The position numbers were made by a program, and so were the translations under genes. From NCBI GenBank assembly GCA_965223155.1, contig CBDCVR010000015.1, positions 864,001 through 928,000 on the forward strand: DNA of 64,000 nucleotides, written 5' to 3'. The DNA is from Candidatus Multivoradales bacterium. GTDB taxonomy: Bacteria; Acidobacteriota; Thermoanaerobaculia; Multivoradales; JAHEKO01. Of the stretch, positions 6,653 through 29,032 are shown piece by piece. Under the pieces are notes generated by a model. That model was not told the origin of the DNA, did not search any database, and saw only the letters and a program-made list of their open reading frames with translations. Position 1 is the stretch's first letter. The number at the start of each line of letters is the position of its first letter.

Positions 6653-6726
6653 GGCGGTGGGCCCGGTCCGAGCCGGCCGGAGCCGGTCGAAAGCAGGCCC
6701 GACCAAGTTTGATCAGGACCGAGGCC

Positions 6727-6771
6727 TTGACAGAGGAGCCCTTCCAGAGTACTCTTTTTGAGTACTCAAAA
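6727..6771 (+). promoter_or_regulatory. Sigma70 promoter with overlapping palindromic operator candidates
   Basis: TTGACA (6727-6732), 17-nt spacer, TACTCT (6750-6755); palindromes AGAGTACTCT (6746-6755) and TTTTGAGTACTCAAAA (6756-6771). Confidence 0.8.
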
Positions 6772-6803
6772 TTCCTTGCGCCGCTTACTCCGGTTAGACC
6801 ACC

Positions 6804-8699
6804 ATGCCAAATTCAACCTCGAACCGATTTCTTCTCGCTAGCGTTTTTCTGCTTGGGCTCGCAACCGCGCCGGCACCCGCGCACATCGTGCCCCCGGAGG
6901 CGCTTCATCCGGTTGCCGAGAGCTACCGCCGTCTCGAGTTCTTTCTGAATCTGAATCCAGTGCCCTGGGACCAGGTCGCGGCCGATTCGCGGCGGATCGC
7001 CGGCGAGCTCGATCGGCTCGGCACCGAGGATCCGTTTGCCGAGGCCCTCGAGGACCGGCTCCGCGCTCTCGAGTCCGAGCGCGGATCCGGGGCCTGGGAC
7101 GCCGGCGCCCGGCGCCAAGCCGGGGCCGCGATTCTGGAAGAAGCGACCCGAGCAGTCGCCCGCACGGTCGTGGCCGAGTTGGATGCCGCCCGAACGCATC
7201 TCGCCGAGTACTCCCGCGCGGCGCGCCATCTCGAAACCGCCCGACGACTCTGGCAGGCGTTCGAGCCCGCGGTGGCGGCGGCGCACCCGGACGAGTTCGT
7301 CCGCCTGGGCGAGTGCTGGCTCGAGCTGGCCTCGGCCCTGGGACATCCGGGACTCGGAGGAATCGGAGGGGTCGCCCCCGACGAGGCCACGTTCGCCTTG
7401 GAAACGGCCGAGGTCTCCGAGTACCTGGCCGCGCACTTCACCGACACGGTCCGTATCCCGCAAATGGGCCGCCTGGCGCCCCTGCCCGGTGTTGAGCTTG
7501 CCGCCTATTCCCCGGGCCGCATGCTGGCGCCCGGCTTCAATCTCAACAAACAGATTCCCCGGCCAAGGCAGATCCTGAACATGGCGACCCGCGGCGTTGA
7601 CGAGCGCGACACGCCGCTGGTGGCCTTGGGAGACATGGCTTTCGACAGCGCCTTGATCTTCGGCGAGCCGGCGCGTTCGCTGGCGATCACCTGCAACACC
7701 TGCCACAACAAGGGCGTAACCAATCCGCAGTTCTTTATCCCTGGTCTGTCCCGGCGCCCCGGCGGCATGGACGTCTCGAACGGTTTCTTCGCCGCTCACG
7801 CCAACAACGGACACTTCGATCCGCTCGACATCCCCGATTTGCGGGGCCTGCGTTTTACCGCGCCCTATGGCCGCAACGGCCGCTTCGACTCGTTGCGCGA
7901 GTTCACCCGCAATGTGATCGTCAACGAGTTCTCCGGCCCCGATCCCGATCCGCTGCTGCTCGACGGCTTGGTGGCGTACATGCTCGAGTTCGACTTCCTG
8001 CCGAACCCCTACCTGGAGGCCGACGGCTCGCTCACGGCTGAGGCCCCGGAGGCGGCGAAGCGCGGCGAGGTTCTCTTCTTGCGCGAGTACCCGGGCCTGG
8101 GCGGGCGTTCCTGCGCCTCGTGCCACGTCCCCTCCGACCACTTCCTGGATCGCAAGCGCCACGACCTCGGCTCGGTCGCGGGCGCCGAAAGCCATTCGAA
8201 GGACCGGGCTCTGGACACGCCGACGCTGCTGAGCAGCACGTATACGGCCCCGTATTTCCATGATGGACGCTTCGAGACCCTGGCCGAGGTCGTCGACTGG
8301 TTCGACGCCCGCTTCGAGCTCGGCTTGAGCGAGGAGCAAGCCTCCGATCTGACCGCCTATCTCGAAACCATCGGCGACGGCGTCGAGGCTTATGAAGACA
8401 CGATTCATACCCTTGAGTCCGAGCTCGAAGAGTTCGACTTCTTTCTTTCCACCTACGAGTTCCTGAAGACCCGCGGCAACGACGTCTTGATCGACGTCAC
8501 CTTCGGCACCATCGCGTTCGAGATCCGAGCCCACAAGTGGGACGTTCAGGATCCGGAGAACCTGCCGCTGCTGGATCGGCTGGCGGCGATGATGGACGAA
8601 GCCCGAACCGCCTTCGCCGCCGGCGACGTCGGGACCGCCGACACCGTGGTGACCGAGTACCGCCGACTCTACAGGAGCAACGCGGAGATCTTGCGATGA
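6804..8699 (+). CDS. Secreted di-heme cytochrome c peroxidase/MauG-superfamily protein with extra helical N- and C-terminal domains
   Basis: Signal peptide; two CxxCH motifs (CNTCH, CASCH); RGEVLF; TPTL...TAPYFHDGRFETLAEVV. Confidence 0.85.
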   Translation: MPNSTSNRFLLASVFLLGLATAPAPAHIVPPEALHPVAESYRRLEFFLNLNPVPWDQVAADSRRIAGELDRLGTEDPFAEALEDRLRALESERGSGAWDAGARRQAGAAILEEATRAVARTVVAELDAARTHLAEYSRAARHLETARRLWQAFEPAVAAAHPDEFVRLGECWLELASALGHPGLGGIGGVAPDEATFALETAEVSEYLAAHFTDTVRIPQMGRLAPLPGVELAAYSPGRMLAPGFNLNKQIPRPRQILNMATRGVDERDTPLVALGDMAFDSALIFGEPARSLAITCNTCHNKGVTNPQFFIPGLSRRPGGMDVSNGFFAAHANNGHFDPLDIPDLRGLRFTAPYGRNGRFDSLREFTRNVIVNEFSGPDPDPLLLDGLVAYMLEFDFLPNPYLEADGSLTAEAPEAAKRGEVLFLREYPGLGGRSCASCHVPSDHFLDRKRHDLGSVAGAESHSKDRALDTPTLLSSTYTAPYFHDGRFETLAEVVDWFDARFELGLSEEQASDLTAYLETIGDGVEAYEDTIHTLESELEEFDFFLSTYEFLKTRGNDVLIDVTFGTIAFEIRAHKWDVQDPENLPLLDRLAAMMDEARTAFAAGDVGTADTVVTEYRRLYRSNAEILR

Positions 8700-9583
8700 C
8701 CCGACGCCTTCTTCTTGCCTTCCTTGCGGCGACCTTGGGTGCTTTGAGCGCCCCGAGCGCTCCCGCGGCCACCGCCGCCGCCGAAACTGCGCAGTCCCCA
8801 CTGCGTATCGCGTTCATCGCCTACCAGAATCCGGACCAGCTCCTCGAGAACGTCGCCCCGGTGGCCCGATATCTTGAGAGCGCGCTCGGCCGCCCGGTCG
8901 AGACCTTCGCCGCCACCGATTACGCCGGCGTGGTCGAAGCACTCAAGAACGAAACCGCCGACGCCGGCTTCATGGGTCCGCTCCAGTACATCATCGCCAA
9001 CCGCCAGGCCGGAGCGCGGCCGATCCTGGCCGAGCTCTACAACGGCTCCGCCACCTACGAGTCCCATGTTTTTGTCCGTAAGGACAGTGGCATCGACTCC
9101 TTGGCCGAGCTCGAGGGCAAGACCATCGCCTTCGTGGATCCCTTGTCCTCGTCCGGATATCTGTATCCGCTCCAGACCTTCGTTACCGCCGATCTCATCG
9201 ACTCGGCTGGCGCCGCCGACTCGTTCTTTCGCAAGGTCTACTTCGCCGGCGGCGACGAGCAGGCCGTCCGCGCGGTGCTCAACCGCTTCGTGGACGCCGC
9301 CGGCGTGGGCCAGTACTCGGTGGGTCTGCTCCGTCCCGAGGAGCGCGAAGCCATGCGAATCCTGGGCCGGTCGCGGCCGATCCCGTCCCATTGCGTGGTC
9401 GTTCGCGAAGGGCTCGACGAGGGATCGGCGCAAGCCCTCCAAGAGGCGCTTCTGGCTCTCAACGAAGGACCCGACCGGCCGCTCCTACGGCATCTCTACT
9501 CGGTGGACGGCTACGCCGAAGCAACCCACAAAACCTACTCCGACGTCGAGGCCCTGGCGCGTGAGCTGGGCTTCATCGACTAG
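8696..9583 (+). CDS. phnD: Phosphate/phosphite/phosphonate ABC transporter substrate-binding protein (PhnD-like)
   Basis: Signal peptide; DYAGVVEAL, LEGKTIAFVDPLSSSGYLYP, SRPIP; ATGA overlap with the di-heme gene. Confidence 0.85.
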   Translation: MTRRLLLAFLAATLGALSAPSAPAATAAAETAQSPLRIAFIAYQNPDQLLENVAPVARYLESALGRPVETFAATDYAGVVEALKNETADAGFMGPLQYIIANRQAGARPILAELYNGSATYESHVFVRKDSGIDSLAELEGKTIAFVDPLSSSGYLYPLQTFVTADLIDSAGAADSFFRKVYFAGGDEQAVRAVLNRFVDAAGVGQYSVGLLRPEEREAMRILGRSRPIPSHCVVVREGLDEGSAQALQEALLALNEGPDRPLLRHLYSVDGYAEATHKTYSDVEALARELGFID

Positions 9584-9599
9584 CCGGAGGCGGCGGCCC

Positions 9600-10481
9600 A
9601 TGGCCAACTCTGAGGTGCGTACCGGCACGGGTCCCGAGGGCCAGGCGATCATTCAGCTCGACTCGGTCCACGTCCTCTACGGCACCACCCTGGCGCTCGA
9701 CGTCGAGAGCCTCGAGATCCGATCCGGCGAGCGCGTCTTCGCCCTCGGCCACAGTGGCTCGGGCAAGACGACGCTTGCCCGCCTCATCAAAGGCCGCCAG
9801 CGGCCGTCGACTGGCAGCGTGCGCGTCTTCGGTCGCGATCCGGCCACCGCCAGGGATCGCCGGCGCCGCCAGCGCCGCGTGGCCATGATCGACCAGGAGT
9901 ACTTCCTGGTACCGCGCCTGAGCGTCGTCGAGAACGTTCTGCACGGCGCTCTCGGCCGGGTCTCGCCCGGCCGTAGCCTGCTCGGCCTCTACCCAAGTGA
10001 CGAGTGGTCCAAGGCCGAAGCCATTCTCGCTGAAGTCGAGCTCGACGGTCTTGGCTACCGGCGAGTCGAGACCCTGTCCGGCGGTCAGAAGCAGCGCGCC
10101 GCGATCGCCCGGGCGCTCATGCAAGAAGCCGACGTCATTCTTGCCGACGAGCCGGTCTCGGCCCTCGATCCAGAGCTCGCCGAGGATGCTCTCGAGCTCC
10201 TGGTCGAGTGCGTGGCGCGGCGCGACGTGACGTTGCTTGTCAACCTCCACCAGCCCGAGCTGGCGCGTCGTTACGCTGACCGCTTTCTGGGCTTGGCCCA
10301 CGGGCGGCTGGTGTACGACGGCGACCCTGAGAACTTTACCGACGACGTAGCCGAGCTCGTCTACCGTGGCCGGCAGGCCGAGCCTGAACTCCCCAACCAT
10401 CCGGAGACCCCTGATGTCGATGCTGCAGAAGGTACGCAGAAGGAAGCTCTTTCTTCAGACCTCCGTCTGGTTGGCGATTAG
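9600..10481 (+). CDS. phnC: Phosphonate-type ABC transporter ATP-binding protein
   Basis: Walker A GHSGSGKT, LSGGQKQR, ILADEPVSALDP, VNLHQ; GGAGG at 9586-9590. Confidence 0.88.
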   Translation: MANSEVRTGTGPEGQAIIQLDSVHVLYGTTLALDVESLEIRSGERVFALGHSGSGKTTLARLIKGRQRPSTGSVRVFGRDPATARDRRRRQRRVAMIDQEYFLVPRLSVVENVLHGALGRVSPGRSLLGLYPSDEWSKAEAILAEVELDGLGYRRVETLSGGQKQRAAIARALMQEADVILADEPVSALDPELAEDALELLVECVARRDVTLLVNLHQPELARRYADRFLGLAHGRLVYDGDPENFTDDVAELVYRGRQAEPELPNHPETPDVDAAEGTQKEALSSDLRLVGD

Positions 10482-11193
10482 CGCTCTCGTTCTATGGGCG
10501 ATGCGCTGGTCGGAGTTCGACTCCGGCGCGCTCTTCTCGTCCGGGGAGCGGTTCGCGGAGTTCTTCTCCAGGCTGGTGCCTCCGGATTGGTCGGTCGCGC
10601 AGCTGGTGTTTCGCTCGACGATCGAGACTCTGATGATCGCCCTCGCCGGCACCACGCTGGCCGTGGTGGTGGCCCTGCCGCTGGGTTTTCTGGCTGCCGC
10701 CAACGTCTCGCCCGCCTGGGTCAGCCAGCCCATCAAGTGGCTTCTGGGCCTGATCCGCTCGATCCCGCTGATCGTCGTGGCGATGCTCTTCGTCGCGGCC
10801 GTCGGTCTCGGTCCCTTCCCCGGCATGCTCGCCATCGCGTTTCACTCGATCGGCATGCTCGGCAAGTTCTACGCCGAAGAATTCGAGACCGCCGAGCGCG
10901 GCATTCTCCAAGCGGTGTCCGGAACCGGCGCCACCTGGACGCAAACGGTGCGCTACGGGCTCTGGCCGCAGTCGATTCCCCAGGTCGTGGCCTTCACCGT
11001 CTACCGCCTGGAGATGAATTTTCGGGACGCTGCCGTCCTGGGCCTGGTCGGCGCTGGCGGCGTCGGCTACTACATCCTTCTGTACGTGCGCGGATTCCAG
11101 TACGAGAAAGTCGCCGTGTTGCTCCTGGTGATCATTCTCGTCGTCCTGGCTCTCGACACACTGACCTTTTGGATACGACGATGGATTCAATGA
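10414..11193 (+). CDS. phnE: Phosphonate-type ABC transporter permease
   Basis: PPDWS, ETLMIALAGT, GMLGKFYAE, YRLEMNFRDAAVLGLVGAGGVG. Confidence 0.9.
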   Translation: MSMLQKVRRRKLFLQTSVWLAISALVLWAMRWSEFDSGALFSSGERFAEFFSRLVPPDWSVAQLVFRSTIETLMIALAGTTLAVVVALPLGFLAAANVSPAWVSQPIKWLLGLIRSIPLIVVAMLFVAAVGLGPFPGMLAIAFHSIGMLGKFYAEEFETAERGILQAVSGTGATWTQTVRYGLWPQSIPQVVAFTVYRLEMNFRDAAVLGLVGAGGVGYYILLYVRGFQYEKVAVLLLVIILVVLALDTLTFWIRRWIQ

Positions 11194-11960
11194 AACCCGC
11201 AGTCCTGGCGCCGGCCCTCGCCTTGGCTCTGGTCCTAGGCCTCCTTCTCGGCGGCGCTCCCGGCGCCGCCCAAGAGCCGGAGCTCATAACCGATCGCCCT
11301 GACCAGACCGAGTCTGCGGTCACCGTCCCTGCCGGGAGGGTTCAGGTCGAAACCGGCGCTCTCTGGACCCACGACGACGGAGGCCGAACTTCTCGGGAAG
11401 CCCTGGAGCTAGCCTCGACTCTCGTCCGGATCGGCTGGACCGAGCGTTTCGAGCTCCGCATCGGCGTCGATGGCTGGGTTTCCGAGCGCCTCGAGACAGG
11501 AGCTGGGCGGCCTACGACGCTCGAGGGCCTTGGGGATGCCTCGCTTGGAGGCAAGTTCGTGCTTCAAGAGGGCTCGGGCTCGCGGGCCCAGATCGCCCTT
11601 CTGGCCGAAACCACCGTACCGGCCGGCGACTCCGAGATCACGAGCGACCGCTGGGACCCCTCCGTGCGGCTCGCCATGGCCCGAGACTTCGCGCGGTTCT
11701 CCCTGGGCTGGAACCTCGGCGTCGAGTTCCCCGACGGCGACGAGGTCGCGTTCTACACGCTAGCCGCCAGCTTTCCGCTCGGGAAACGGCGCGGTGCCTT
11801 CCTCGAGATCTTCGGCGACTCGGAGTCCAGCCACTCTCTGGACGGCGGCCTGACGTTCCTGTCCGGCCCCAACTTTCAATTCGACGTCGCCGCGGGGATT
11901 GGCCTGACCGACGAGGCGCCGGACTGGTTCGCCGGGCTGGGCTTTTCGGTACGCCGCTAG
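11190..11960 (+). CDS. Outer-membrane beta-barrel 'transporter' (MetA-pathway/phenol degradation-like family)
   Basis: Signal peptide followed by LITDRPDQTESAVTVPAGRVQVETG; alternating beta-strands; ATGA overlap with phnE. Confidence 0.8.
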   Translation: MKPAVLAPALALALVLGLLLGGAPGAAQEPELITDRPDQTESAVTVPAGRVQVETGALWTHDDGGRTSREALELASTLVRIGWTERFELRIGVDGWVSERLETGAGRPTTLEGLGDASLGGKFVLQEGSGSRAQIALLAETTVPAGDSEITSDRWDPSVRLAMARDFARFSLGWNLGVEFPDGDEVAFYTLAASFPLGKRRGAFLEIFGDSESSHSLDGGLTFLSGPNFQFDVAAGIGLTDEAPDWFAGLGFSVRR

Positions 11961-15525: not shown

Positions 15526-16340
15526 GGGCCTGTTAACACTTAAGGGTTAGGATCGTATAAGCTCCGTGCATGGAAATCACGGAGAAACAGTACGAGCGCA
15601 TTGCAGATTGCTTTCCAGTGCAGCGAGGCAACGTCAGCGTGCCGAATGTTCAAGTGCTGAACGCAATTCTCTACGTTGCCGAACACGGCTGCAAGTGGCG
15701 CGGGCTCCCGAAACGATTCGGGAATTGGCACACGATCTACACTCGCATGAACCGTTGGTCCAAGAACGGCGTGTTGGATCGGGTGTTCGCGCGGCTCCAA
15801 GAGGAGCAGATCGTGCGAGTCAAGATCGAGGCCGTGTCACTTGACAGCACGATCGTGCGGGTTCACCCCGACGGTACGGGAGCATTAAAAAAAACGGCCC
15901 CCAGGCCATTGGAAAGTCCCGCGGTGGATGGACCACCAAGATTCATATGGTTGCCGCAGATGCTCGAACAGCCATCACCTTCTGCCTCTCGCCCGGCCAA
16001 GCGCACGATGCGCCCGTCGGCCGATGCTTGCTGAAAGACCTGGGCCGACCGAAGCAACCGATCGCGCTTGTCATGGACCGAGCCTACGAAGGCAACGAAA
16101 CCCGACAACTCGCTCTGAATCTCGGCTATACCCCTGTCGTGCCACCCTTGAGCACTCGCCTTCGGCCCTGGGCCTACGACCGGCTCCTCTACAAACGTCG
16201 CAACGAGATCGAACGGCTCTTTCGCCGGCTCAAAGGCTACCGGCGCATCTTTTCCAGATTCGAGAAGCTCGACGTCATGTACATCGCCTTCATCCATTTC
16301 GCCCTCATCGCTGATGCACTGCGACAATGTTAACACGCCC
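15526..16340 (+). mobile_element. IS5-family insertion sequence (IS427-like group), about 815 bp
   Basis: Terminal inverted repeats GGGCCTGTTAACA / TGTTAACACGCCC; two-ORF transposase inside; flanks CCAG and CTAG. Confidence 0.92.
15570..16333 (+). CDS. IS5-family transposase expressed by programmed -1 frameshift
   Basis: OrfA has GCKWRGLP..FGNWHTIYTR and DSTIVRVH; A8 run at 15887-15894; the -1 frame continues SRGGWTTKIH, DRAY, YKRRNEIERLFRRLK. Confidence 0.92.
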
Positions 16341-18891: not shown

Positions 18892-21800
18892 CTACTCCGG
18901 CTGCCAGGCCGGTATCCGGCCCGGCGTCCAGGGTGCGCCCGCGGCTTCCATCTCGGCCTCGAGCTCGCCGAGATCCTCCTCGACCAATGCCCTGAGCGCG
19001 CCAAGAACCGGCTCGAACGCCTCGGCGGCGATGTCGTAGGCGCGCCGGTGGGTGGCGGTGGGCGCCGAGCTCGACGTCCAGCTGCCGCCCACGGCACGGC
19101 CGATCCGGGCCGAGATCGAAGGCGGCGTGGGCTCGAAGCGGCGGGAGACGGTCCGGTCTCCCTGAAGCGAGACCTTGAGGTCCTCGAGGCGGGTTTCGAG
19201 ATCTTCGAGCCGTGCCACCCAAGCCTCGCTTTCGGTCGGCGTGTCGAGAGCGGCGCGGCGCAGGTGCTGGATCCGGGTTTCGGTCTCTCCGACCACGCGG
19301 TTGGCGCCCTGGACCGCCCGCTGCAAGCGGGCGAGCTTCTTCTGGAAGGCGAGGAGAGCGGCCTTGTCGTCGGCCGGCAACGAGACCGTACCGGTCGGCA
19401 CCGTCTCGAACGTCTCCGGCCCGGCGAGCTCGGTCAGCTCGTTGTTCTCGAACTTGGCGAGACTCACCGAGTAGGTCCCGGGAACCACCATCGGTCCCAT
19501 GGGATCGCTCGAGAAGGCGTTCCGCGCTCGCGGTGTGAGGCGAGCGGGGTCGTGCGGCGGATACCGAAGATCCCAGCTCACCCGATGGAGGCCCTTCTCG
19601 GCCGGACCGGTCAGGCGGCGAACGACGTGTCCGTCGGAGTCCCGCACGGTCAGGACGATCGCTGGATCCTGGGCGCGATCTTCGGCCCGGAGCTCTTCCC
19701 AGCTCGGGTAGCCGACGTCCTCGCCGGCTTCCTTCTCGGCTTCCTCGGACTGGCGCTTCTTCTTCAGGCTCTGGAACCCGTCCTCGAGGTAGTAGGTGAA
19801 GACCGCTCCGTGCGGGGGATTTTCGGCCGTGTAGAACGAGTCCCCCTGGAAGGCGACGTTGTTGTAGCCGAGCTCGAAGCTCTTCATGTACATCCGGGTG
19901 CGCCGCGGAGCGAACAGGATCGCCTCGGCTTCGAGCGCTTCTTCGCTCATCCGCCGGAGCGGCGAGTAGTCGTCGAGGATGAAAAAGCCGCGCCCGAAGG
20001 TGCCGACGACCAAGTCGTTTTCGCGAGCCTGGATCTCGAGGTCGCGCACGTTGATGGTCGGCATGCCGGCGAGCTTCACCCAGCTCGTGCCGCCATTGAC
20101 CGAGACGTAGGCCGCCCACTCGGTGCCGGCAAACAGGAGATCGGCCGTCTCGTGATCCTGGGCGACAGTGTAGACCGTGCCCTTGTCGGGCAGATCGCCG
20201 GCGATCGACGTCCAACTGCGGCCGCGGTCGGTTGACTTCAGAAGGTACGGCTTGAAGTCACCCGACTTGTGGTTGTCGATCGCCGCGAAGACCGTGTCAG
20301 GGTCGTGCTTCGAAGCTTCGAGGTCGCTCACATACGCCATCGCCGGAACACCAGGAAACGAGTCCTCGCGTCTCCAGTTGGCGCCGCCATCTTCCGAGAT
20401 CTGAATCAAGCCGTCATCGGTGCCGACGTAAAGCAGCCCTTCGATCAGTGGTGATTCCGAGACCGACACGATCGTGCCGAAGAACGAGGTCGATCGGTTC
20501 TTCGACACGGTGTCCACACCCCAGACCTTCCCCATGACCTCGAGCCGGTTCCGGTCCAGGTTCCGGGTCAGATCGCCGGAGACCGGCCGCCAGGAGTCAC
20601 CCCGGTCGTCCGAGCGATACAGGCGCTGCGAGGCGAAGTAGAGGCGAGTCGAGGCGTGCGGACTGATCGCGAACGCCGAATCCCAATTCCAACGCGGCGG
20701 ATCCTCTCCGGGCTCGGTCTGGGGCTTGATGTCGGTTCGCTCCCAGCTCTTCTTGTCGAGCCGGACCAGGCCGCCGTACTGCCACTGGGAGTAGACGATG
20801 TCGGGGTTGTCGGGATCGACCCCCGGGTCGAAGCCGTCGCCGCCCACGGTCACGTACCAGTCCCGGTTGGTGATGCCGTGCTCGGAGGTGGTCCGGGAAG
20901 GACCGCCCAAGGTGGAATTGTCTTGGGTGCCGCCATAGACGTTGTAGAAGGGCAGCGCGTTATCGACCGCGATCTTGTAAAACTGCGTGATCGGCAAATT
21001 GGCCTTGAAATCCCAGGTCGCGCCCCGGTCCCAGGTCTCATAGACGCCGCCGTCGCAGCCCGAGATCATGTGCCGGGTGTCGTCCGGATCGATCCAGTGG
21101 GCGTGGCTGTCGACGTGCTTGGCAAACTCCGGGACCTTCTCGAAGCTCTTGCCGCCGTTCTCGGACACATGGAGCCAGGTGTCCATCGAGTAGATCCGGT
21201 CCGGGTTCGTCGGATCGACGAAGATCTCGTTGTAGTACTGGGGCGAGCCCGACACGTAGTCCGAGCGTCTCTCCCAGTTGAGCCCACCGTCGGTCGAGCG
21301 GAAGAAACCACTCTTCTTGCCCAGCGACTCGACGATGGCGTAGACGGTATCCGGTGCCGACGGCGCTACCGCCAGCCCGATCTTGCCCTTGTCCTCCTTC
21401 GGCAGACCGTTTTCGATCTTCGACCAATTGGCACCGCCGTCCGTCGTCTTGTAGACGGTCGATTCCGGACCGCCGTTGATGAGCGTCCAGGTCCGCCGGC
21501 GCCGCTGGTAGGAGGACGCGTACAAGACGTCCGGGGCGCGCGGGTCCATCCAGACTTCGTTGACCCCGGTGTGCTCGCCGATCTCGAGCACTCGCTGCCA
21601 GGTCTCGCCGCCGTCGGTCGTCTTGTAGACGCCGCGCTCACCGCCGGCCCGCCAGAGCGGGCCCTGAGCGGCGACGTAGACCGTCGCCGAATCGCGCGGA
21701 TCCACCACGATCCGCCCGATGTGTTCCGACTCGCCCAGGCCCACGTTCTTCCAGTTCTTGCCGGCGTCCTGGGACTTGTAGACCCCATCGCCGTAGGAGA

Positions 21801-22203
21801 CCGAGCGCTGCGAGTTGTTCTCGCCGGTACCGACCCAGATCACGTCCGGGTTGTTGGGGTCCAGGGTGATGCACCCGATCGAAAACGATCCCTCGCCGTC
21901 GAAGATAGGCGTCCAGGTGGTGCCCGCGTTGATCGTCTTCCACACCCCGCCGGAAGCCGCGGTCACGTACCAGATGCTCGAGTCGTCCGGATGCACGACG
22001 AGATCCGAGATCCGGCCCGAGGCGATCGCGGGACCGATCTCGCGCAGCGGCAACCCGGCCAGGAGCTCGGCCGAGACCCGAAGCTCGGAGCCATCCGGGC
22101 TCGCGGCCGAGGCCTTGGCTTTGCCCCGCTTGGCGGCGGCCGGTTCGGCAGCCCCGGCGAGAACGGTCCAGGTGACAAGAATTCCGACCAAAGTCCGCGT
22201 CAT
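18892..22203 (-). CDS. Large secreted VPS10/sortilin-like BNR-repeat beta-propeller protein ('glycosyl hydrolase')
   Basis: REIGPA..SGRI, many SxDGGxxW Asp-boxes, GGTQDN, GTDDG, TFGRGF. Confidence 0.9.
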
Positions 22204-22379
22204 CGCTTACCTCTTTCTCCTCAGGAACTTGAAGCCGGGGGACCGTCCGCCGTCGGGAAGACCGGAGCCCGCGCTCCGCTGGTCGAGGAAGGCCGCAAGG
22301 CTATCACCACGCGCTCCGCGCGCCGGCCGCGGATCCGTACCGCTCGCCCGAGGCTTCTTGCCCCTATACTTCGAGCATC

Positions 22380-22658
22380 TTGCGCCCGGCCCGCCCCAAC
22401 CCCGAAGTGCTCTTTCGACACGTGAACGACGAGACCATCCTCGTGCACCTCGACTCGGGAGCAATCTTCTCGCTCAACGAGACCGGATCGCGGTACTGGC
22501 AGCTCCTCGAGTCGGGACTGGCGCCCGAGGCGCTCCTGGACCGAATGGCCGAGGAGTTCGACGTGGCCCGCTCTCAGCTCGCCAGGGAGATCGCCGAGCT
22601 GCAGACAAGCCTCCTGGAGGCCGGGTTGGTCGAAGTCGGCGCTCCTGCGGTTGACTAG
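22380..22658 (+). CDS. Stand-alone RiPP recognition element (PqqD family; lasso B1-like)
   Basis: DETILVHLDSGAIFSLNETGSRYWQLL...EEFDV...LLEAGLV; TATACT at 22365-22370 upstream. Confidence 0.9.
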   Translation: MRPARPNPEVLFRHVNDETILVHLDSGAIFSLNETGSRYWQLLESGLAPEALLDRMAEEFDVARSQLAREIAELQTSLLEAGLVEVGAPAVD

Positions 22659-24555
22659 GCCGCCTGAGATCGACATGGCCGCCTGGGCTCTCAGCTGGCT
22701 ACCCGAGATCGAGGCCGAGCCCCGGCTCTACGGCGATCCTCCGGGACCGGACTCCTCCGTCAGCCTTTCTCGCTCGGACGCCGGCGACTTTTCGTTATTC
22801 GACGGCTACCTCCTCGACCCGGGCAAGCTTTCTGCCCGGTCCGACCCAACGGCTTCGAACGCCGAGATCCTCGCCCGCGCCGATGGCGACGGGACGCCCA
22901 GGATCCTCGACCGGCTGCGCGGGAGCTTCGTCTGGATCGTCTGGAACGCCCAGCGCCGTCGGCTGACGGTAGTCCGGGACCTGGCCGGGCTCACCCCCTG
23001 CTTCTTCACTTGGGATGGGAGCGCGCTTCTCGTCGCGCGCCGACCCGACGCGCTCCTGAGGCTCGGCCGTGACCTGGGGCGACTCGACTTTGCCGTCAAC
23101 CGGGAGGCCGTCGCCGAGTACCTGGCGTCGTCCTATTCGGAGGCGCTCGCCGACGAGACCTTCATCAGCAAGGTCAGGCGACTGCGGCCGGCGCACCTGC
23201 TGCGGCTCGACCGGACCGGCCTGGAGATCGATCGCTACTGGGCGCCGCTGCCGGGGGGATTCGCTTGGGCCACGGCGGACGAGGCCGCAACCTTCCCCCA
23301 GGTGCTCGAAGCCGCAGTGGCTCGCTGCCTCGACGCGGGGGCGGACTCGCTGGCCCTGAGCGGCGGCTTCGATTCGGTGAGCCTGGCGGTGCTGGCCGCC
23401 CGGTTGCGCGGTAGCCGGGCGCCACTCGACGCCGTCTCGCTTCACTTCGACGGCGGTGACTGCGACGAGAGCGCCACCCAGACGGCGGTCGCCCGCGCCC
23501 TCGGCATGCCCCAGACCATCCGATCGCTCGCCCAGAGTCTTGGAGACCGCAATCCGGTCGAGGCCGCCCTGGCTCTCTCCGGCGAGAGCCCGGTGCCGGT
23601 GCTGAGCGTATGGCAAGCGTTCTACACCGGTCTCATGGCGAGCATGCGCCCCAGGAAGAGCGGCCTGATGCTGGGAACCGGCGGCGACGAACTCATGGCC
23701 GTCGATGGAAAATATGGCGCGGACTGTGTGCTCGCGGCCTCGCCGCTCCGCCTCTGGCGGTTCTACGACTCCTGGCGGCGGGCTTCTTCGTTCGGACCGC
23801 TATTTGTTGCCCGCGAGATCTTCTGGCGCCACGGCCTGCGGGCAGCGGGACGCGAGATCCTGCTGCGGGCTCTTGACGCGGGGGTCCCGGAGCTCCAAGC
23901 GCGGATCCTCCGCCGGCGCTGGCGCCGGCGAATCGAGGCCAATACCTGGCTCACCCGCGACGCCGGGCTCCTGGACCGGCTCGAACGCCGACGCTCCGGT
24001 GGTACCGACCTCCGCCAAGTCCGGGAGCCAAGCCTGTACATTCGGTACCTGCGCGCCTTGTTTGACTCGCCGGCCCTGATGATGGAGCTCGATCAGGGAG
24101 CTGCCTGGGCCCAGGCCCAGGGTATTGCCACATTCCTGCCATTTTTCGATCGAGACGTCATCGAGCTGAGCCTCCGCCTGACTCCCGAGCAACTCCTGGC
24201 GGGCGGCGAATCCAAAGCACTCTTGCGGAATCTGGTTCGTGGAGGACTCCCCCAGGTCGAGCTCCCTGCCCGCAAAGTCGGCTTCGGTATGATGGTTCAT
24301 GACGTTCTCCGTAAGAGTGGCCGCGAAATCTGGCAGAATTGGCGTTCGACGCTTCGGCTCGGCGAGATTGGCCTGATCCAGCCGGATCGTGGACAGCGAG
24401 CCCTCGATGGCTATTTTGCTCATCGCAACAACGATTGGTTCTTGGCGTGGAAGATTCTGAGCGCGGAAGCCTGGCTGAGGCACCATCGGTCGCGGCCGAC
24501 GAGACCACCCCGGCCTCTCTCCGAAAACCCTGGCGAAAGTCCTGGAGGCCCATGA
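22651..24555 (+). CDS. Asparagine-synthetase-like lasso cyclase (macrolactam synthetase)
   Basis: Degenerate glutamine amidotransferase-like N-domain with no Cys1; PP-loop LSGGFDS; DES; GTGGDEL; PFFDRDV; C-terminal EAWLR. The start may be ATG 22675. Confidence 0.88.
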   Translation: MTRPPEIDMAAWALSWLPEIEAEPRLYGDPPGPDSSVSLSRSDAGDFSLFDGYLLDPGKLSARSDPTASNAEILARADGDGTPRILDRLRGSFVWIVWNAQRRRLTVVRDLAGLTPCFFTWDGSALLVARRPDALLRLGRDLGRLDFAVNREAVAEYLASSYSEALADETFISKVRRLRPAHLLRLDRTGLEIDRYWAPLPGGFAWATADEAATFPQVLEAAVARCLDAGADSLALSGGFDSVSLAVLAARLRGSRAPLDAVSLHFDGGDCDESATQTAVARALGMPQTIRSLAQSLGDRNPVEAALALSGESPVPVLSVWQAFYTGLMASMRPRKSGLMLGTGGDELMAVDGKYGADCVLAASPLRLWRFYDSWRRASSFGPLFVAREIFWRHGLRAAGREILLRALDAGVPELQARILRRRWRRRIEANTWLTRDAGLLDRLERRRSGGTDLRQVREPSLYIRYLRALFDSPALMMELDQGAAWAQAQGIATFLPFFDRDVIELSLRLTPEQLLAGGESKALLRNLVRGGLPQVELPARKVGFGMMVHDVLRKSGREIWQNWRSTLRLGEIGLIQPDRGQRALDGYFAHRNNDWFLAWKILSAEAWLRHHRSRPTRPPRPLSENPGESPGGP

Positions 24556-24662
24556 AGCTGAGCCACCTGGGCTCGATCGGCGATCTCGTTCAGGGAAGCG
24601 GCAAGACCGGCACGGTTCCCGACGGCGATCCCCAATCTGTTCGCAAGACCGGCGTCGGCTAG
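24552..24662 (+). CDS. Putative RiPP (lasso-like) precursor peptide MKLSHLGSIGDLVQGSGKTGTVPDGDPQSVRKTGVG; may start further upstream (GTG 24447)
   Basis: ATGA overlap with the cyclase stop; GGAGG at 24544-24548; in-frame WRPMKLSHLGSIGDLVQG resembles the lasso leader (Y/W)xxPxLxxxG motif; Gly-rich core containing Asp. Confidence 0.8.
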   Translation: MKLSHLGSIGDLVQGSGKTGTVPDGDPQSVRKTGVG

Positions 24663-25534
24663 GCCGTTCGGTCGTTCTCGAAAACCGCCCGCAGCCGCCG
24701 CACGGTCCGCCGGAACCGCTCGGGCCCGGACGGATACGCAAGACGCGCGACCTCGACCGAGCCGACCAGGTGTAAGCAGGAGGCAGCCATTCGCCGGGTT
24801 GCCTCACCGTCGGCCGGGTCGAAGCGCCAGCAGTGCTTGAGAAGCTCCGGAAAAGCGATTGGCGCGGGAAGGGGTTCAAGGACGGAACCCTCCAGCTCGG
24901 CTGCGCCGTCTCGACGCTCGAGCAGGACGACGCGCCGGATCGGAAGGAATCGGGGCGGCCGCCGCGCATCCGCCAGCCATTCTGAGGGCGGCTCCGAAAA
25001 CCCCTCCGGATCGAAGCCCAGGAGCTCAAAGGCGTCGGGAAGCAGCCTGAGCCGGAACGGCACGAGCCAACCCCGGCAGGATTCACCGTCCGGCTCGAAG
25101 GGCACGAGGTCGTCCGCGGCCACCTGGGCTCCGGAGAGTCCCAGGGCCGCGGCCAGCGTCGACTTGCCGGTGCCCGAGTCTCCGCAAAGCACCGCTACGC
25201 CGCCGGCCGCGACCACGGCGCTGGCATGGAGCGAGGTCAGCCCGCGAGCCTCGAGGATCAGTGGCAGCACCTGGCGCCGGTACACCTCGGCGATCTCGTC
25301 GCCGGCCGCGTCGCCGGCCACCTCGGCAACCGCTGCGGCCGAGGTCTCGGTCCCGAATCGAAAGAGGCCCACGGCATCGAGGCGCAAGAATCGCTCGGCC
25401 CCCAGAGAGCCGGCGGTACCGATCTGGACGCCCCGCGGATCGCACCAGGGCCAGGAGCGACCCCCGCGCGACGTCCAGTCCGCCCCGGGATCGCCCACCG
25501 TCGCGACCCGCTCGATCTTCAACTCCGGTAGCAT
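24659..25534 (-). CDS. HPr-kinase-like P-loop kinase (lasso peptide kinase type)
   Basis: LHASAV, Walker A GDSGTGKST, ADDL; adjacent to the RRE, cyclase and precursor genes. Confidence 0.85.
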   Translation of the reverse strand: MLPELKIERVATVGDPGADWTSRGGRSWPWCDPRGVQIGTAGSLGAERFLRLDAVGLFRFGTETSAAAVAEVAGDAAGDEIAEVYRRQVLPLILEARGLTSLHASAVVAAGGVAVLCGDSGTGKSTLAAALGLSGAQVAADDLVPFEPDGESCRGWLVPFRLRLLPDAFELLGFDPEGFSEPPSEWLADARRPPRFLPIRRVVLLERRDGAAELEGSVLEPLPAPIAFPELLKHCWRFDPADGEATRRMAASCLHLVGSVEVARLAYPSGPERFRRTVRRLRAVFENDRTA

Positions 25535-25672
25535 GGCGCCTCGACCGAATCTTAGCGGCCGGCACCAAGGCCTGTCCCCGACGCCTCGAGCCGCCCCGGC
25601 GGGCTTGTCCAGCCCGATCGAGACGCCGGCCGGTACCGGAAAAAACTGCTGCCCTCGGAGGACCCTAGAACG

Positions 25673-28600
25673 ATGACCCGACCCCTCGGCACCGCCCGGA
25701 CCAATCGTTGCCCCGTCTTGTCCCGGATCGCTCTTGCCACCGTCGTCTTGACCCTCCTGTCCCTCGTTTTCTCGACACCCGCCGAAGCCCGTAAGGGCAA
25801 GAAGAAGGCGGCCGCCGAGTCCGCTGAGGCCCCCGAGTCCGATACCGCGCTATCGTCGGCGACCTTCTCCGGCCTCGAGTTTCGCTCGATCGGCCCGGCT
25901 CTCATGTCGGGCCGCATCGCCGACATTGCCGTTCATCCCGACGACCAGTCGGTCTGGTACGTGGCGGTGGGGAGCGGCAACTTGTGGAAGACTACGAACG
26001 CTGGCACTACCTGGACGCCCATCTTCGACGACCAGGGCTCGTACTCGATTGGTGACGTGACCCTGGATCCGTCCAACCCCGAGATCGTTTGGGTCGGCAC
26101 CGGCGAGAACGTCGGAGGGCGTCACGTGGGCTACGGTGACGGCGTGTACAAGAGCCTCGATGGGGGCGCAAGCTGGGAAAACGTCGGCCTCGAGAGCTCG
26201 GAACACATCGGCAACATCGTCGTCGATCCGAACGACGGCAATGTCGTCTACGTCGCATCTCAAGGCCCACTGTGGTCTGCCGGAGGCGACCGCGGTCTCT
26301 TCAAGACCACCGACGGCGGCGCGACCTGGGAGAAGATCCTCGGCGGCGGCGAGTACACGGGCGTCAACGAGGTGATGATGGACCCGCGGGACTCGATGGT
26401 TCTCTACGCCTCGACCCATCAGCGCTTTCGGAACGTCGCCGCCCTCCTCAACGGCGGCCCCGAATCGGGACTCCACAAGTCCACCGACGGCGGCACGACT
26501 TGGCGTGAGCTCTCGAACGGCATCCCCGAAGACGACAAAGGCAAGATCGGCATCGCGATCTCGCCCATCAACCCGGACGTTGTCTACGCGACGGTCGAGA
26601 CCCCACAGCGGGAGATCGCCGTCTACCGTTCCGCGAACGCCGGCGCGAGCTGGGAGAAGGGCGCCGATGTCGGCTACTCGGGCACCGGCCCGCACTACTA
26701 CCAGGAGATCTTCGCCAGTCCCCACAAGTTCGACCGCATCTACCACATGAACCCGCGTATCTCGGTCTCGGACGACGGCGGTACGAGCTGGCGGCCGCTG
26801 GGCGAGGAGTACAAGCACGGCGACAGCCATGCGATGGCCTTCGATCCGAACGACCCGGACTACCTTCTAGTCGGAAGCGACGGTGGGCTCTACGAGAGCT
26901 TCGACCAGGCCAAGAGCTGGAAGTTCCTCGCCAACCTGCCGGTGACCCAGTTCTACAAGGTGGCGGTGGACTACGACGAGCCCTTCTACCACGTGGTCGG
27001 CGGCACCCAGGACAACAACACGCAGTACGGGCCTTCGCGCACCGACAACGTGCACGGCATCCGCAACTCCGACTGGGAGATCACGCTTTTCGGCGACGGC
27101 CACCAGCCGGCGATCGACCCCACCGACCCGAACATCGTCTACTCCGAGTGGCAGGAAGGGAACCTGACCCGCTGGGACCGAGCCACCGGCGAGATGATCT
27201 ACATCCAGCCGCAACCCGAAGCCGACGAGGAATGGGACCGCTTCAACTGGGACTCGCCCATTCTGATCAGCGCCCACGACCCGGCCCGCCTCTACTTCGC
27301 GAGCCAGCGAGTCTGGCGCAGCGACAACCGCGGCGATTCTTGGCGGCCGGTTTCCGGAGACCTCTCGAAGGGCGTTGATCGGCTGACCCAGCCGATGATG
27401 GGCAGAGTGTGGCAGTGGGAGTCGAACTGGGACGTCTGGGCGATGTCGAAATACAGCACGATCACGTCTCTAGGGGAATCACCCAAGGACGAGAACATCC
27501 TCTACGCCGGCACCGATGACGGCCTCGTCCAGATCTCCGAGGACGGCGGCCAGACCTGGCGCAAGATCGACTCGCTGCCCGGCGTCCCCGATGGTTTCTT
27601 CGTCAACGACATCAAGGCCGACCTCCACGACGCGGACACCGCCTACGTCGTGGTTGACGACCACAAGTCAGGCGACTTCTCGCCCTACGTCCTGAAATCG
27701 ACCAATCGAGGCCGCTCCTGGACCTCGATCGCGAGCGATCTTCCCGAGCGCCACGTCGTGTGGCGTCTGGTGCAAGATCACGAGAACCCCAATCTCCTCT
27801 TCGTCGGCACCGAATTCGGGGTCTTCTTCACGGTCGACGGCGGCGGCAAGTGGGTCAAGCTTTCGGCCGGGATGCCCAACATCCCGGTGCGGGACCTGGC
27901 CATCCAGAAGCGGGAGAACGACTTGATCGCGGCGACCTTCGGCCGCGGCTTCTACGTCCTCGACGACTACAGCGCTCTGCGCTCGATCTCGGAGGAAATG
28001 CTCGAGTCGTCCGACGTCGAGCTCTTCGAGCCGCGTAAGGCCTGGTGGTACATGGAGCGCCGTGCCCTGGGCGGCTCCAAGAAGGCCAGCCAGGGCGAGG
28101 CCTTCTACGTCGCCGACAACCCGCCTTTCGGCGCCACCTTCACTTACTACCTGAAGGATTCCCTCGAGACCGCCAAGGAGGCGCGCAAGAAGCAAGAGGG
28201 CGAGGTCGCCAAGGAGGGCGGAGACACGCCCTACCCCGGATGGGACGCACTCCGCGAAGAGGATCTCGAGGAGGCTCCTGCGATTCTCCTAACGGTCACC
28301 AACGGAGCCGGCGAGGTGGTTCGCCGCCTGACCGGGCCGGCCAAGGCCGGCGTCCACCGCGTGACCTGGGACCTACGGTATCCGAGTTCGAGCGCCTGGA
28401 GCGAGGACTGGAACGACGAGAACGCAAGCGGTTTCCTGGCCGAGCCCGGAACCTACACAGTTTCGCTGGCCCAGCGCTCGGGGACCGTCGTGACCGATCT
28501 CGACCAGAGCCAGTCCTTCGAGGTCGTACCGCTTCGCGAGCGAGGCCTTCCGGGCGCGAGCCCGGCCGAGGCCGTGGCCTTCCTGCGCGAGCTCGACGCC

Positions 28601-29032
28601 TTCAACCTCCAGGCCGAGGCCGCGAACTCCGCGCTCGCGGAGGCCGAAACGAAGCTCGACGCCATCAGGCAGGCGCTCATGCGGTCGACTCTGGCGCACA
28701 GCCAGCTCGATGACAGCGCCCGCGGTCTGTGGCGGAAGGTCAAGGACCTCCAGCTCTGGCTCGAAGGCAGCGAACGCCGGGACAACATGGGTGATCCGGG
28801 ACCGGTCTCGATCGAGCGCCGGCTCGGCGTCGCCTTCATGGGCAACATGCTGTCGACCTACGGACCGACACCGACTCATACGCGCCAGTTCGAAATCGCC
28901 AAGGAGGAGTTCGCCCGACTCTCTTCGGAGCTCAACCAACTTCTCGAAACCGACCTACCCGCTCTCGAGACTCAGCTCGACGCGGCGGGCGTTCCGTGGA
29001 CTCCGGGCCGCGGCATTGGCGGAGGATCCTGA
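25673..29032 (+). CDS. Large secreted VPS10/sortilin-like BNR-repeat beta-propeller protein, paralog of 18892..22203
   Basis: RSIGPALMSGRIAD, Asp-boxes, GGTQDN, RFNWDSP, TFGRGF; same C-terminus PWTPGR. Confidence 0.9.
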   Translation: MTRPLGTARTNRCPVLSRIALATVVLTLLSLVFSTPAEARKGKKKAAAESAEAPESDTALSSATFSGLEFRSIGPALMSGRIADIAVHPDDQSVWYVAVGSGNLWKTTNAGTTWTPIFDDQGSYSIGDVTLDPSNPEIVWVGTGENVGGRHVGYGDGVYKSLDGGASWENVGLESSEHIGNIVVDPNDGNVVYVASQGPLWSAGGDRGLFKTTDGGATWEKILGGGEYTGVNEVMMDPRDSMVLYASTHQRFRNVAALLNGGPESGLHKSTDGGTTWRELSNGIPEDDKGKIGIAISPINPDVVYATVETPQREIAVYRSANAGASWEKGADVGYSGTGPHYYQEIFASPHKFDRIYHMNPRISVSDDGGTSWRPLGEEYKHGDSHAMAFDPNDPDYLLVGSDGGLYESFDQAKSWKFLANLPVTQFYKVAVDYDEPFYHVVGGTQDNNTQYGPSRTDNVHGIRNSDWEITLFGDGHQPAIDPTDPNIVYSEWQEGNLTRWDRATGEMIYIQPQPEADEEWDRFNWDSPILISAHDPARLYFASQRVWRSDNRGDSWRPVSGDLSKGVDRLTQPMMGRVWQWESNWDVWAMSKYSTITSLGESPKDENILYAGTDDGLVQISEDGGQTWRKIDSLPGVPDGFFVNDIKADLHDADTAYVVVDDHKSGDFSPYVLKSTNRGRSWTSIASDLPERHVVWRLVQDHENPNLLFVGTEFGVFFTVDGGGKWVKLSAGMPNIPVRDLAIQKRENDLIAATFGRGFYVLDDYSALRSISEEMLESSDVELFEPRKAWWYMERRALGGSKKASQGEAFYVADNPPFGATFTYYLKDSLETAKEARKKQEGEVAKEGGDTPYPGWDALREEDLEEAPAILLTVTNGAGEVVRRLTGPAKAGVHRVTWDLRYPSSSAWSEDWNDENASGFLAEPGTYTVSLAQRSGTVVTDLDQSQSFEVVPLRERGLPGASPAEAVAFLRELDAFNLQAEAANSALAEAETKLDAIRQALMRSTLAHSQLDDSARGLWRKVKDLQLWLEGSERRDNMGDPGPVSIERRLGVAFMGNMLSTYGPTPTHTRQFEIAKEEFARLSSELNQLLETDLPALETQLDAAGVPWTPGRGIGGGS

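Follow-up and report, generated by a model that had tools for sequence, protein, structure and literature searches.

We analysed a 64,000-nucleotide stretch of the genome of a Candidatus Multivoradales bacterium (contig CBDCVR010000015.1, positions 864,001 to 928,000 of the forward strand), which as a whole is called the window here. Four adjoining genes in this window are, judged by their sequences, a kinase-associated lasso-peptide cluster comprising a B1 protein, a cyclase, a precursor and a convergent HprK-like kinase. Our main subject is the precursor gene, whose start is embedded in the end of the cyclase gene. The predicted leader motif of the precursor spans and precedes its ATG at 24552, and in this respect it is unique among the 43 related peptides that we collected. 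The four genes are:

22380..22658, plus strand: B1, the recognition element for ribosomally synthesised and post-translationally modified peptides (RiPP recognition element, RRE; PqqD family), 92 amino acids; PF05402, E=6e-15, 55.8 bits (cut-off 23.4).

22651..24555, plus strand: lasso cyclase (Asn-synthase-like), 634 amino acids from TTG 22651; PF00733, E=2e-28, plus GATase_7.

24552..24662, plus strand: precursor open reading frame (ORF; A), 36 amino acids, recognised by a hidden Markov model (HMM) match and codon usage.

24659..25534, minus strand: HprK-like lasso precursor kinase (K), 291 amino acids; TIGR04352, E=8e-6, and PF07475, E=0.004, both below cut-off.

The precursor ORF runs from ATG 24552 to the TAG at 24660-24662 and encodes the peptide MKLSHLGSIGDLVQGSGKTGTVPDGDPQSVRKTGVG. 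Its start shares an ATGA (24552-24555) with the cyclase stop, and at its other end the TAG and the stop of the convergent kinase gene overlap within a CTAG. The ORF is a real gene, beyond chance. An HMM of family peptides, described below, matches this frame with E=2.4e-13, and its 36 codons have a codon-usage log-likelihood of +18.1 bits, a value usual for true frames of the window. The same frame is open 5' of the ATG, where ...AADETTPASLRKPWRKSWRP precedes Met. The nearest in-frame ATG, GTG or TTG in that direction is GTG 24447, which gives 71 amino acids and a 109-nucleotide overlap with the cyclase ORF ending at 24555; the next is TTG 24435. KTG occurs twice in the peptide, the second time as part of a conserved C-terminal K-x-G-x-G motif of the family, and Asp residues fall at positions 10 and 12 when G15 is taken as residue 1. 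A first-pass annotation, made from the letters of the window, had described the 36-residue ORF, the upstream LRKPWRKSWRP, the GTG with its 71 residues and an overlap of about 110 nucleotides, the two Asp and the two KTG, and we find all of these in the sequence. The parts of the precursor and its surroundings are listed here, with family positions numbered from a cut after V-Q:

24447..24551, plus strand: in-frame upstream extension, VEDSERGSLAEAPSVAADETTPASLRKPWRKSWRP, encoding the family's invariant W at 24543-24545; it lies over the cyclase tail, in the -1 frame.

24522..24545, plus strand: two adjoining 12-nucleotide units, CGAAAACCCTGG and CGAAAGTCCTGG, identical at 10/12 positions and encoding RKPW-RKSW.

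24552..24599, plus strand: retained leader part M1-S16, MKLSHLGSIGDLVQGS, with the family positions L(-12), L(-9), G(-8), I(-6), D, L and V.

24600..24659, plus strand: most likely core G17-G36, GKTGTVPDGDPQSVRKTGVG, with the invariant K18, T19 as the probable kinase site, D24 as the probable ring acceptor and D26 as a second conserved Asp.

In the alignment the RKPW-RKSW units form a four-residue insertion relative to the family. Tandem Repeats Finder reported no repeat in 24300-24700, the 12-nucleotide duplication being too short for it, and the predicted RNA fold of 24430-24600 is not more stable than shuffled sequences (z = +1.5). No Pfam or NCBIfam family matches the window's ORF as 36, 71 or 107 amino acids, the NCBIfam models match none of three full-length relative precursors, and a homologue search with the 71-residue translation returned no candidate protein.

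The sequence of the junction was compared over 24200-24800 with contigs from four public runs (X1-X4) of one study, which may be the source of the assembly itself. The contigs of X1, X2 and X3 each span the interval in one piece and are identical to the window; X4 covers it in several pieces. No gap or indel was found in this interval in any contig of the four runs, which speaks against the indel suspected near 24485 in the first-pass annotation. Differing letters are confined to one short X4 contig (record 9, window 24600-24697), which is 104 nucleotides long with a depth of 2.9 and has 9 differences from the window. Seven of these are listed: synonymous changes at P27, V30 and R31, the substitutions S29T and T33S, and two changes past the stop. 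This contig suggests a co-occurring strain variant of the precursor.

Related loci placed the peptide in a family. In the database, 36 proteins share 39-48% identity with the cyclase, and there is none closer. When 32 of these were aligned and used as a query, 30 metagenome loci (L011-L040) and 13 genome loci (L059-L071) were obtained, whereas a single cyclase protein searched against the genome contigs gave no loci. The genome loci come from metagenome-assembled genomes (MAGs) titled Acidobacteria, Rokubacteria/Methylomirabilia, Dormiibacterota, Phototrophicaceae, Kofleriaceae/Polyangium, Planctomycetales and Alphaproteobacteria. The family occurs in MAGs of Acidobacteriota, Methylomirabilota/Rokubacteria, Chloroflexota, Myxococcota, Planctomycetota and Alphaproteobacteria. 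One genome locus, titled Candidatus Multivoradales (Acidobacteriota, Thermoanaerobaculia), is that of G015, a genome of the window's own family. A small ORF lies just 3' of the cyclase in 40 of 40 sources with downstream sequence; the lack of a conserved ORF of this kind was one of two outcomes that the first-pass annotation had named as refuting its proposal, and it clearly does not apply.

A precursor HMM was built from 17 peptides found by regular expression and run on all stop-to-stop frames. The loci yielded 43 family peptides, 41 of them distinct; the loci lacking a precursor match (L025, L027, L039 and L067) have at most 32 nucleotides of downstream flank each. W(-17), L/V/I/M(-12), G(-8) and an invariant Lys are present in 43/43 peptides, P(-14), three residues after W, in 42/43 with the window's peptide as the sole exception, V or I fifteen residues after W in 42/43, and K-x5-[DE]-x-[DE] in 41/43, counts that are partly circular, as the search profiles contain W and other counted residues. 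When full-length precursors served as the profile, the database search gave 122 proteins. Those listed, 120 in number, measure 45-83 residues, contain no Pfam domain and carry the name "hypothetical" wherever a source gives one; among them W and V are kept in 120/120, P in 119/120 and the K motif in 118/120. The proposal that an aromatic leader element stands before the ATG, inside the cyclase tail, is borne out by these counts, with the motif reading aromatic-x-x-P-x-L. By sequence comparison, the predicted precursor belongs to a large, unnamed and uncharacterised family encoded beside homologous cyclases. A literature search for this precursor family or for a lasso-cyclase Lys-Asp lactam found no paper. 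Acidobacteriaceae precursors in Figure 2 and Figure S14 of PMC10368454 may or may not belong to the same family. The cluster itself is of a known type, the kinase-associated lasso cluster.

In the family, the predicted start codon normally lies upstream of W. A canonical start lies 6-26 codons before W in 41/43 family peptides, the exceptions being the window's and one from G015 (G015-1). In the database set the start precedes W in 120/120, by 2-19 codons in 118/120, by 27 in one and by 35 in one. In the window, W-R-P-M-K-L stands in place of the family's W-E-R-P-T-L, and the ATG lies at the position of Pro(-14), so that Met1 occupies a place that is Pro in 42/43 relatives. Two elements near the candidate starts were located:

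24544..24548, plus strand: GGAGG Shine-Dalgarno (SD) core, 3 nucleotides before ATG 24552 and formed by the W and R codons.

24390..24417, plus strand: sigma-70-like promoter match TGGACA-16-TATTTT, inside the cyclase 3' end and 18 to 30 nucleotides 5' of TTG 24435 and GTG 24447.

We tentatively place the start at ATG 24552, with a leader shortened at its N-terminus, though we give this somewhat less than an even chance. This ATG is the sole ATG in any frame in 24440-24560. The ATGA overlap with the cyclase stop recurs in L013, L023, L033, L036, L037, L038 and L063, and also in L016 by ORF call, and the ATG is preceded by a GGAGG core. Codon usage agrees with this start, as the ORF at 24552-24659 scores +18.1 bits and the peptide frame of the preceding 24480-24551 (about 24 codons) -2.3 bits. 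The mostly synonymous changes in the X4 variant contig are in line with it as well. Finally, a leader without W could still work, because a triple Ala mutant of BsfA, the precursor of the bsf cluster of Bradymonas sediminis, at Y(-17), P(-14) and L(-12) was still phosphorylated and its leader cleavage only partly reduced, according to Duan et al. (2023; PMC10368454). Termination at the cyclase stop followed by reinitiation within ATGA, assisted by the GGAGG 3 nucleotides upstream, would then produce a 36-residue precursor that lacks W, has Met for Pro(-14) and keeps the rest of the leader (L..LG.I.DLV). A predicted complex of B1 and the 36-residue peptide scored 0.12 and 0.11 against a mark of 0.32 and is evidence neither way.

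Several observations weigh against a start at the ATG. No other family member lacks W, suggesting that W and P matter, although this is partly circular. The SD spacer of 3 nucleotides is shorter than the 6-10 nucleotides typical of the GGAGG core in the family. B2 (the leader peptidase), the nucleotidyltransferase and the ATP-binding cassette (ABC) exporter are unlinked and the kinase is inverted relative to the related loci; remodelling or decay of the cluster is therefore possible. The remaining points favour a start further upstream, at GTG 24447, TTG 24435 or a near-cognate codon, which would make a peptide of 71-75 residues with a W-bearing leader encoded in the -1 frame of the cyclase tail and would turn ATG 24552 into an internal Met. 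We regard this as possible but rather unlikely. The upstream frame is still leader-like: its W, universal among the relatives, aligns gap-free with the family's invariant W, RKPW is common to the G015 precursor, and further 5' the residues resemble those of other leaders in being acidic or polar, with a basic one ahead of W. G015-1 likewise has no ATG, GTG or TTG from the cyclase stop to W, where it offers only GGAGG followed by CTG, or GGAGG plus 6 nucleotides followed by ATC; its own start may be near-cognate. The promoter-like match just 5' of TTG 24435 and GTG 24447, from which the longer peptide possibly has its own transcript, is the only such match in the 3.65 kb of 22100-25750 (shuffled sequences contain 0.1 on average), but it is a consensus match without evidence of function. 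Against the upstream start, neither GTG 24447 nor TTG 24435 is preceded by an SD sequence, whereas an SD core (mostly GGAGG) stands 4-12 nucleotides ahead of the start in 30/43 family peptides, and they lie 32 and 36 codons before W, outside the ranges given above. The motif would also be broken regardless, with Met at Pro(-14).

Codon usage bears on both starts. In calibration with 24-codon windows, true frames had a mean of 16.7 (standard deviation 7.8) and off-frames a mean of -17.9 (standard deviation 8.6), and 2% of true windows scored 0 or less. By this measure the upstream peptide frame, at -2.3 bits, is ambiguous, and the low score is a point against the longer peptide. The cyclase frame of 24480-24551 scores -18.1 bits, off-frame-like; the cyclase tail therefore appears not to have evolved as cyclase coding sequence, which counts for the upstream start and against the ATG. 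The last ~24 cyclase codons, which follow the conserved WLR, are not conserved themselves, and it is this end of the gene that lies over the upstream peptide frame. In its third frame, 24480-24551 scores +6.2 bits, which was taken as short-window noise, no start codon or homology having been found for it. A cyclase-precursor fusion made by -1 frameshifting was also considered, and inspection by eye found no X_XXY_YYZ slippery site in the overlap.

The spacing of conserved residues provided insights into where the core begins. V and K are separated by 5 or 8 residues in the family. Three extra residues stand between V-x and G-K in 11/43 loci peptides and in 104/120 database peptides, while K-x5-[DE]-x-[DE] stays fixed. 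Gly precedes Lys in 36/41 loci peptides and 112/118 database peptides with the K motif, and in 20 of those 41 loci peptides the next residue after Lys is Ser or Thr. Asp or Glu falls at ring positions 7-9 only if the core starts at G17 (D8) or K18 (D7 or D9). With the core shifted by two residues, G-K-T-G-T-V-P-D-G can be laid by eye beside G-T-S-G-N-E-V-D-G of BsfA, the two agreeing at G1, G4, D8 and G9 and in having Ser or Thr at position 3. The fixed Lys-acid spacing, the Gly before Lys, the BsfA register and the C-terminal C-x6-8-C tails of majority-subfamily members, which are typical of lasso peptides, make G17 the most likely first residue of the core. The ring would then span 8 residues (G1-D8) and Thr3 would be the target of the kinase, as in BsfA. 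Val is then probably not at position -2 of the precursor leader; no Thr stands two residues before any plausible core start, the residue being V(-2) if the cut is after V-Q and G(-2) if it is before G17. It counts against the G17 core that W would lie 19 residues from the cleavage site, the canonical distance being 17, and that the leader/core boundary, the phosphosite and the ring are all inferred.

In the resulting scheme, B1 would present the precursor to the kinase, which would phosphorylate Thr19 in K-T-G by analogy with Ser3 of BsfA. An unlinked B2 encoded ~275 kb away would remove the leader just before G17. The cyclase would then link the amine of G17 to the side chain of Asp24 (G1-D8) and trap the tail.

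The first-pass annotation had offered an enlarged ring, a shifted cleavage site or a different crosslink; the family comparison favours a core at the second Gly, with D8, and lends no support to an enlarged ring, as the spacing from K to the acid is fixed. A family-wide non-canonical chemistry, in which the leader is cut after V-x and followed by a ring of 10 residues (13 in the majority subfamily) or by a lactam between Lys and the Asp six residues on, appears very improbable to us. It would account for the W-to-V distance of 15 residues, which equals both the distance from Y to Ile(-2) in BsfA and that in the canonical T(-2) precursor of a second cluster of the same genome (L003). It would also give a role to the invariant Lys and its fixed motif, which are not obviously needed of a lasso ring residue, though the Lys could serve kinase recognition instead. 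However, a cut after V-x demands a 13-residue ring in the peptides with three extra residues, which is implausible for 104/120 members. No natural lasso ring is known to exceed 9 residues. The Gly before Lys fits an N-terminal Gly, the G1...D8 register of BsfA fits after the two-residue shift, and B2 is kept in most clusters of the family, as described below. If this chemistry did apply, a cut after V-x would leave conserved acceptors only at 10 and 12 (13 and 15 in the majority subfamily), and the window would combine a non-canonical ring with a leader partly encoded inside the cyclase gene.

B2 is usually linked to these genes. The usual gene order in 15 long loci is nucleotidyltransferase (PF14907), B2 (PF13471), B1, C, A and HprK-like kinase, sometimes with an ABC exporter. 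A B2 HMM found a linked B2 in 23/28 loci with at least 600 nucleotides of upstream flank; the five loci without one are L039, L067, L068, L070 and L071/G015. In the window's cluster, neither a B2 peptidase nor a PF14907 nucleotidyltransferase nor an ABC exporter is linked, and the B2 HMM finds nothing in the window. A single PF13471 match occurs in the genome as a whole (98.7% complete); it lies at C15:1163494-1163859, at a distance of ~275 kb, and belongs to a 186-residue ORF that reaches 87.6 bits on the lasso B2 model NF033537 (cut-off 33) and is 49% and 40% identical to the B2 proteins of G001 and G015; the synteny around it is not shared with G001, G015 or G002. In G015 the best B2 match is likewise remote, ~560 kb from the cyclases. 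The absence of B2 stated in the first-pass annotation thus does not extend to the genome. Nor can a loss of Thr(-2) be tied to it, given that Val or Ile is found family-wide (42/43) together with a linked B2 in 23/28 loci. The replacement of Thr by Val at -2 is not new in itself either, since Ile/Val(-2) in kinase-type clusters, namely those of Acidobacteriaceae and Sphingomonadales, has been reported before (PMC10368454).

The same genome contains a second lasso-like cluster at C13:850037-854542 (locus L003, minus strand), in the order B1 (3515-3844), precursor (~3262-3477) and cyclase (1501-3252, 30% identical to the window cyclase). Its precursor follows the same leader ruler, with Y(-17), P(-14), L(-12) and G(-8), its B1 adjoins the cyclase and it has no linked B2. 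It differs in having T(-2) and then G1...D8 directly after T-L, which is fully canonical. One remote B2 may serve two clusters that differ in the residues before the cut. There are also six PF14907 nucleotidyltransferase and six PqqD matches in the genome, four pairs of which are close together; the listed sites (C13:966900-969218, C14:350715-355676, C14:431207-436583, C14:967602-971315, C15:767393-768109 and C15:349352-349960) may be further PqqD/nucleotidyltransferase cassettes outside the window's cluster.

The B1 ORF reaches 8 nucleotides into the cyclase ORF, aligns with 26 B1 proteins from related loci and scores 39.5 and 36 bits on the NCBIfam lasso PqqD models, under their cut-offs. 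The cyclase, 626 residues long in its database form, scores 93 bits on the NCBIfam lasso model NF033535 (cut-off 525), and its best partial NCBIfam matches are lasso or macrolactam cyclases, again under cut-off. Its assignment as a lasso cyclase is a prediction that rests on Pfam and context. Its SGGxDS block is present, and of the 83 columns conserved at 95% or more in the family it retains 80, where family members miss 0-6. The kinase translation contains H-x14-G-x2-G-x-G-K-S-x15-D-D, a spacing equal to that of H148/G163/G166/G168/K169/S170/D186/D187 in BsfK (PMC10368454). The kinase gene is convergent with the precursor gene, whereas in the relatives it is co-directional and downstream of A.

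No intergenic space separates the precursor gene from the kinase gene, nor does a terminator-like site lie between the two. Paralogous genes for ~1100-residue BNR/Asp-box, sortilin-Vps10-type proteins, at 18892-22203 (minus strand) and 25673-29032 (plus strand), bracket the four-gene cluster and point apart, as if the cluster had been placed between a duplicated gene pair. Further away, a 154-residue ORF at 15570-16034 (plus strand) presumably resembles the N-terminal part of an IS5-type transposase. Related loci show other arrangements. In L066 and L068, from Kofleriaceae and Polyangium MAGs, a single ORF of 704-713 residues encodes the cyclase with B1 (PqqD) joined to its N-terminus. L010 (G015:C1:4446000-4464000, minus strand, 6708-11956) has two tandem cyclases, 42% and 38% identical to the window cyclase, with one kinase, one B1 and two precursors, the second of which reads L-R-P-K where others have G-x-G-K.

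With 80/83 cyclase columns kept and the kinase motif intact, the cluster looks functional, yet remodelled. It could alternatively be a decaying remnant that has lost its linked B2, nucleotidyltransferase, exporter, original start and Pro(-14), with an inverted kinase and a 36-residue ORF that is poorly made or unprocessed, so that no lasso peptide results. The window's peptide and G015-1 are the only 2/43 without a canonical start 6-26 codons before W, and the window's alone is changed at the P position; B2 is unlinked here and in G015, and recent turnover of the junction sequence is suggested by the 12-nucleotide duplication and the off-frame-like end of the cyclase. On the other hand, all four ORFs are intact, the cyclase is well inside the family range, the coding statistics of the precursor ORF are strong, the X4 variant is mostly synonymous and a lasso B2 is retained in the genome. 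We consider decay unlikely.

If translation does start at the ATG, the locus offers a natural way to test how large a part of the YxxPxL leader is required by a set of lasso RRE, kinase and peptidase; alternatively, it would be a rare RiPP leader encoded in the overlap with its own cyclase gene. That the genome has two lasso clusters without B2, and a B2 elsewhere, matters for genome mining, where B2 is usually demanded in the cluster. The family itself, with at least 120 database proteins and 40 loci in several phyla, combines an invariant Lys, a fixed K-x5-D-x-D block and a variable spacer of 2 or 5 residues after L-V. Together these question the fixed distance from the RRE motif to the B2 cut that is usually assumed, and make the family a good target for studying cleavage and ring rules in phosphorylated lasso peptides.

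ATGA junctions like those of translationally coupled overlapping genes are found in 7-8 other family loci, where they lie 6-17 codons 5' of W; that of the window lies 3 codons 3' of W. Among characterised systems, the paeninodin-type clusters (PadeK, ThcoK, SyanK and PsmK) likewise have an HPr-kinase-like enzyme, often a PF14907 nucleotidyltransferase, and phosphorylation before leader removal. Their kinases act on a C-terminal Ser and Thr(-2) is present, whereas the window's peptide ends in Gly. BsfK is <21% identical to these kinases (PMC10368454).

The closest parallels are with the bsf cluster, as described in the same paper (Duan et al. 2023; PMC10368454). BsfA has the leader Y(-17)xxP(-14)xL(-12) with Ile(-2), its cut after I-R was validated by mass spectrometry, and its core begins with G-T-S-G-N-E-V-D-G. 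BsfK phosphorylates Ser3 and is stimulated by B1. The G1-D8 ring was proposed, not observed, and the mature Bsf peptide was reportedly never observed either. Both clusters are kinase-associated with split B1 and B2, and their HprK-like kinases have the same H/G/G/G-K-S/D-D spacing. The leaders of BsfA and of the window's family have an aromatic residue at -17, P(-14), L(-12) and an aliphatic residue 15 positions after the aromatic one, where Thr is usual, and the core motif, if the core of the window's peptide starts at G17, is G-x-[ST]-G-x3-D-G. They differ in that BsfA is cut right after I-R, whereas the window's family has 2 or 5 more residues between V-x and G-K...D, in the invariant Lys where BsfA has Thr2, and in W instead of Y. 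In the window, moreover, B2, the nucleotidyltransferase (N) and the exporter (D) are unlinked, the kinase (K) is inverted and the start codon is at -14.

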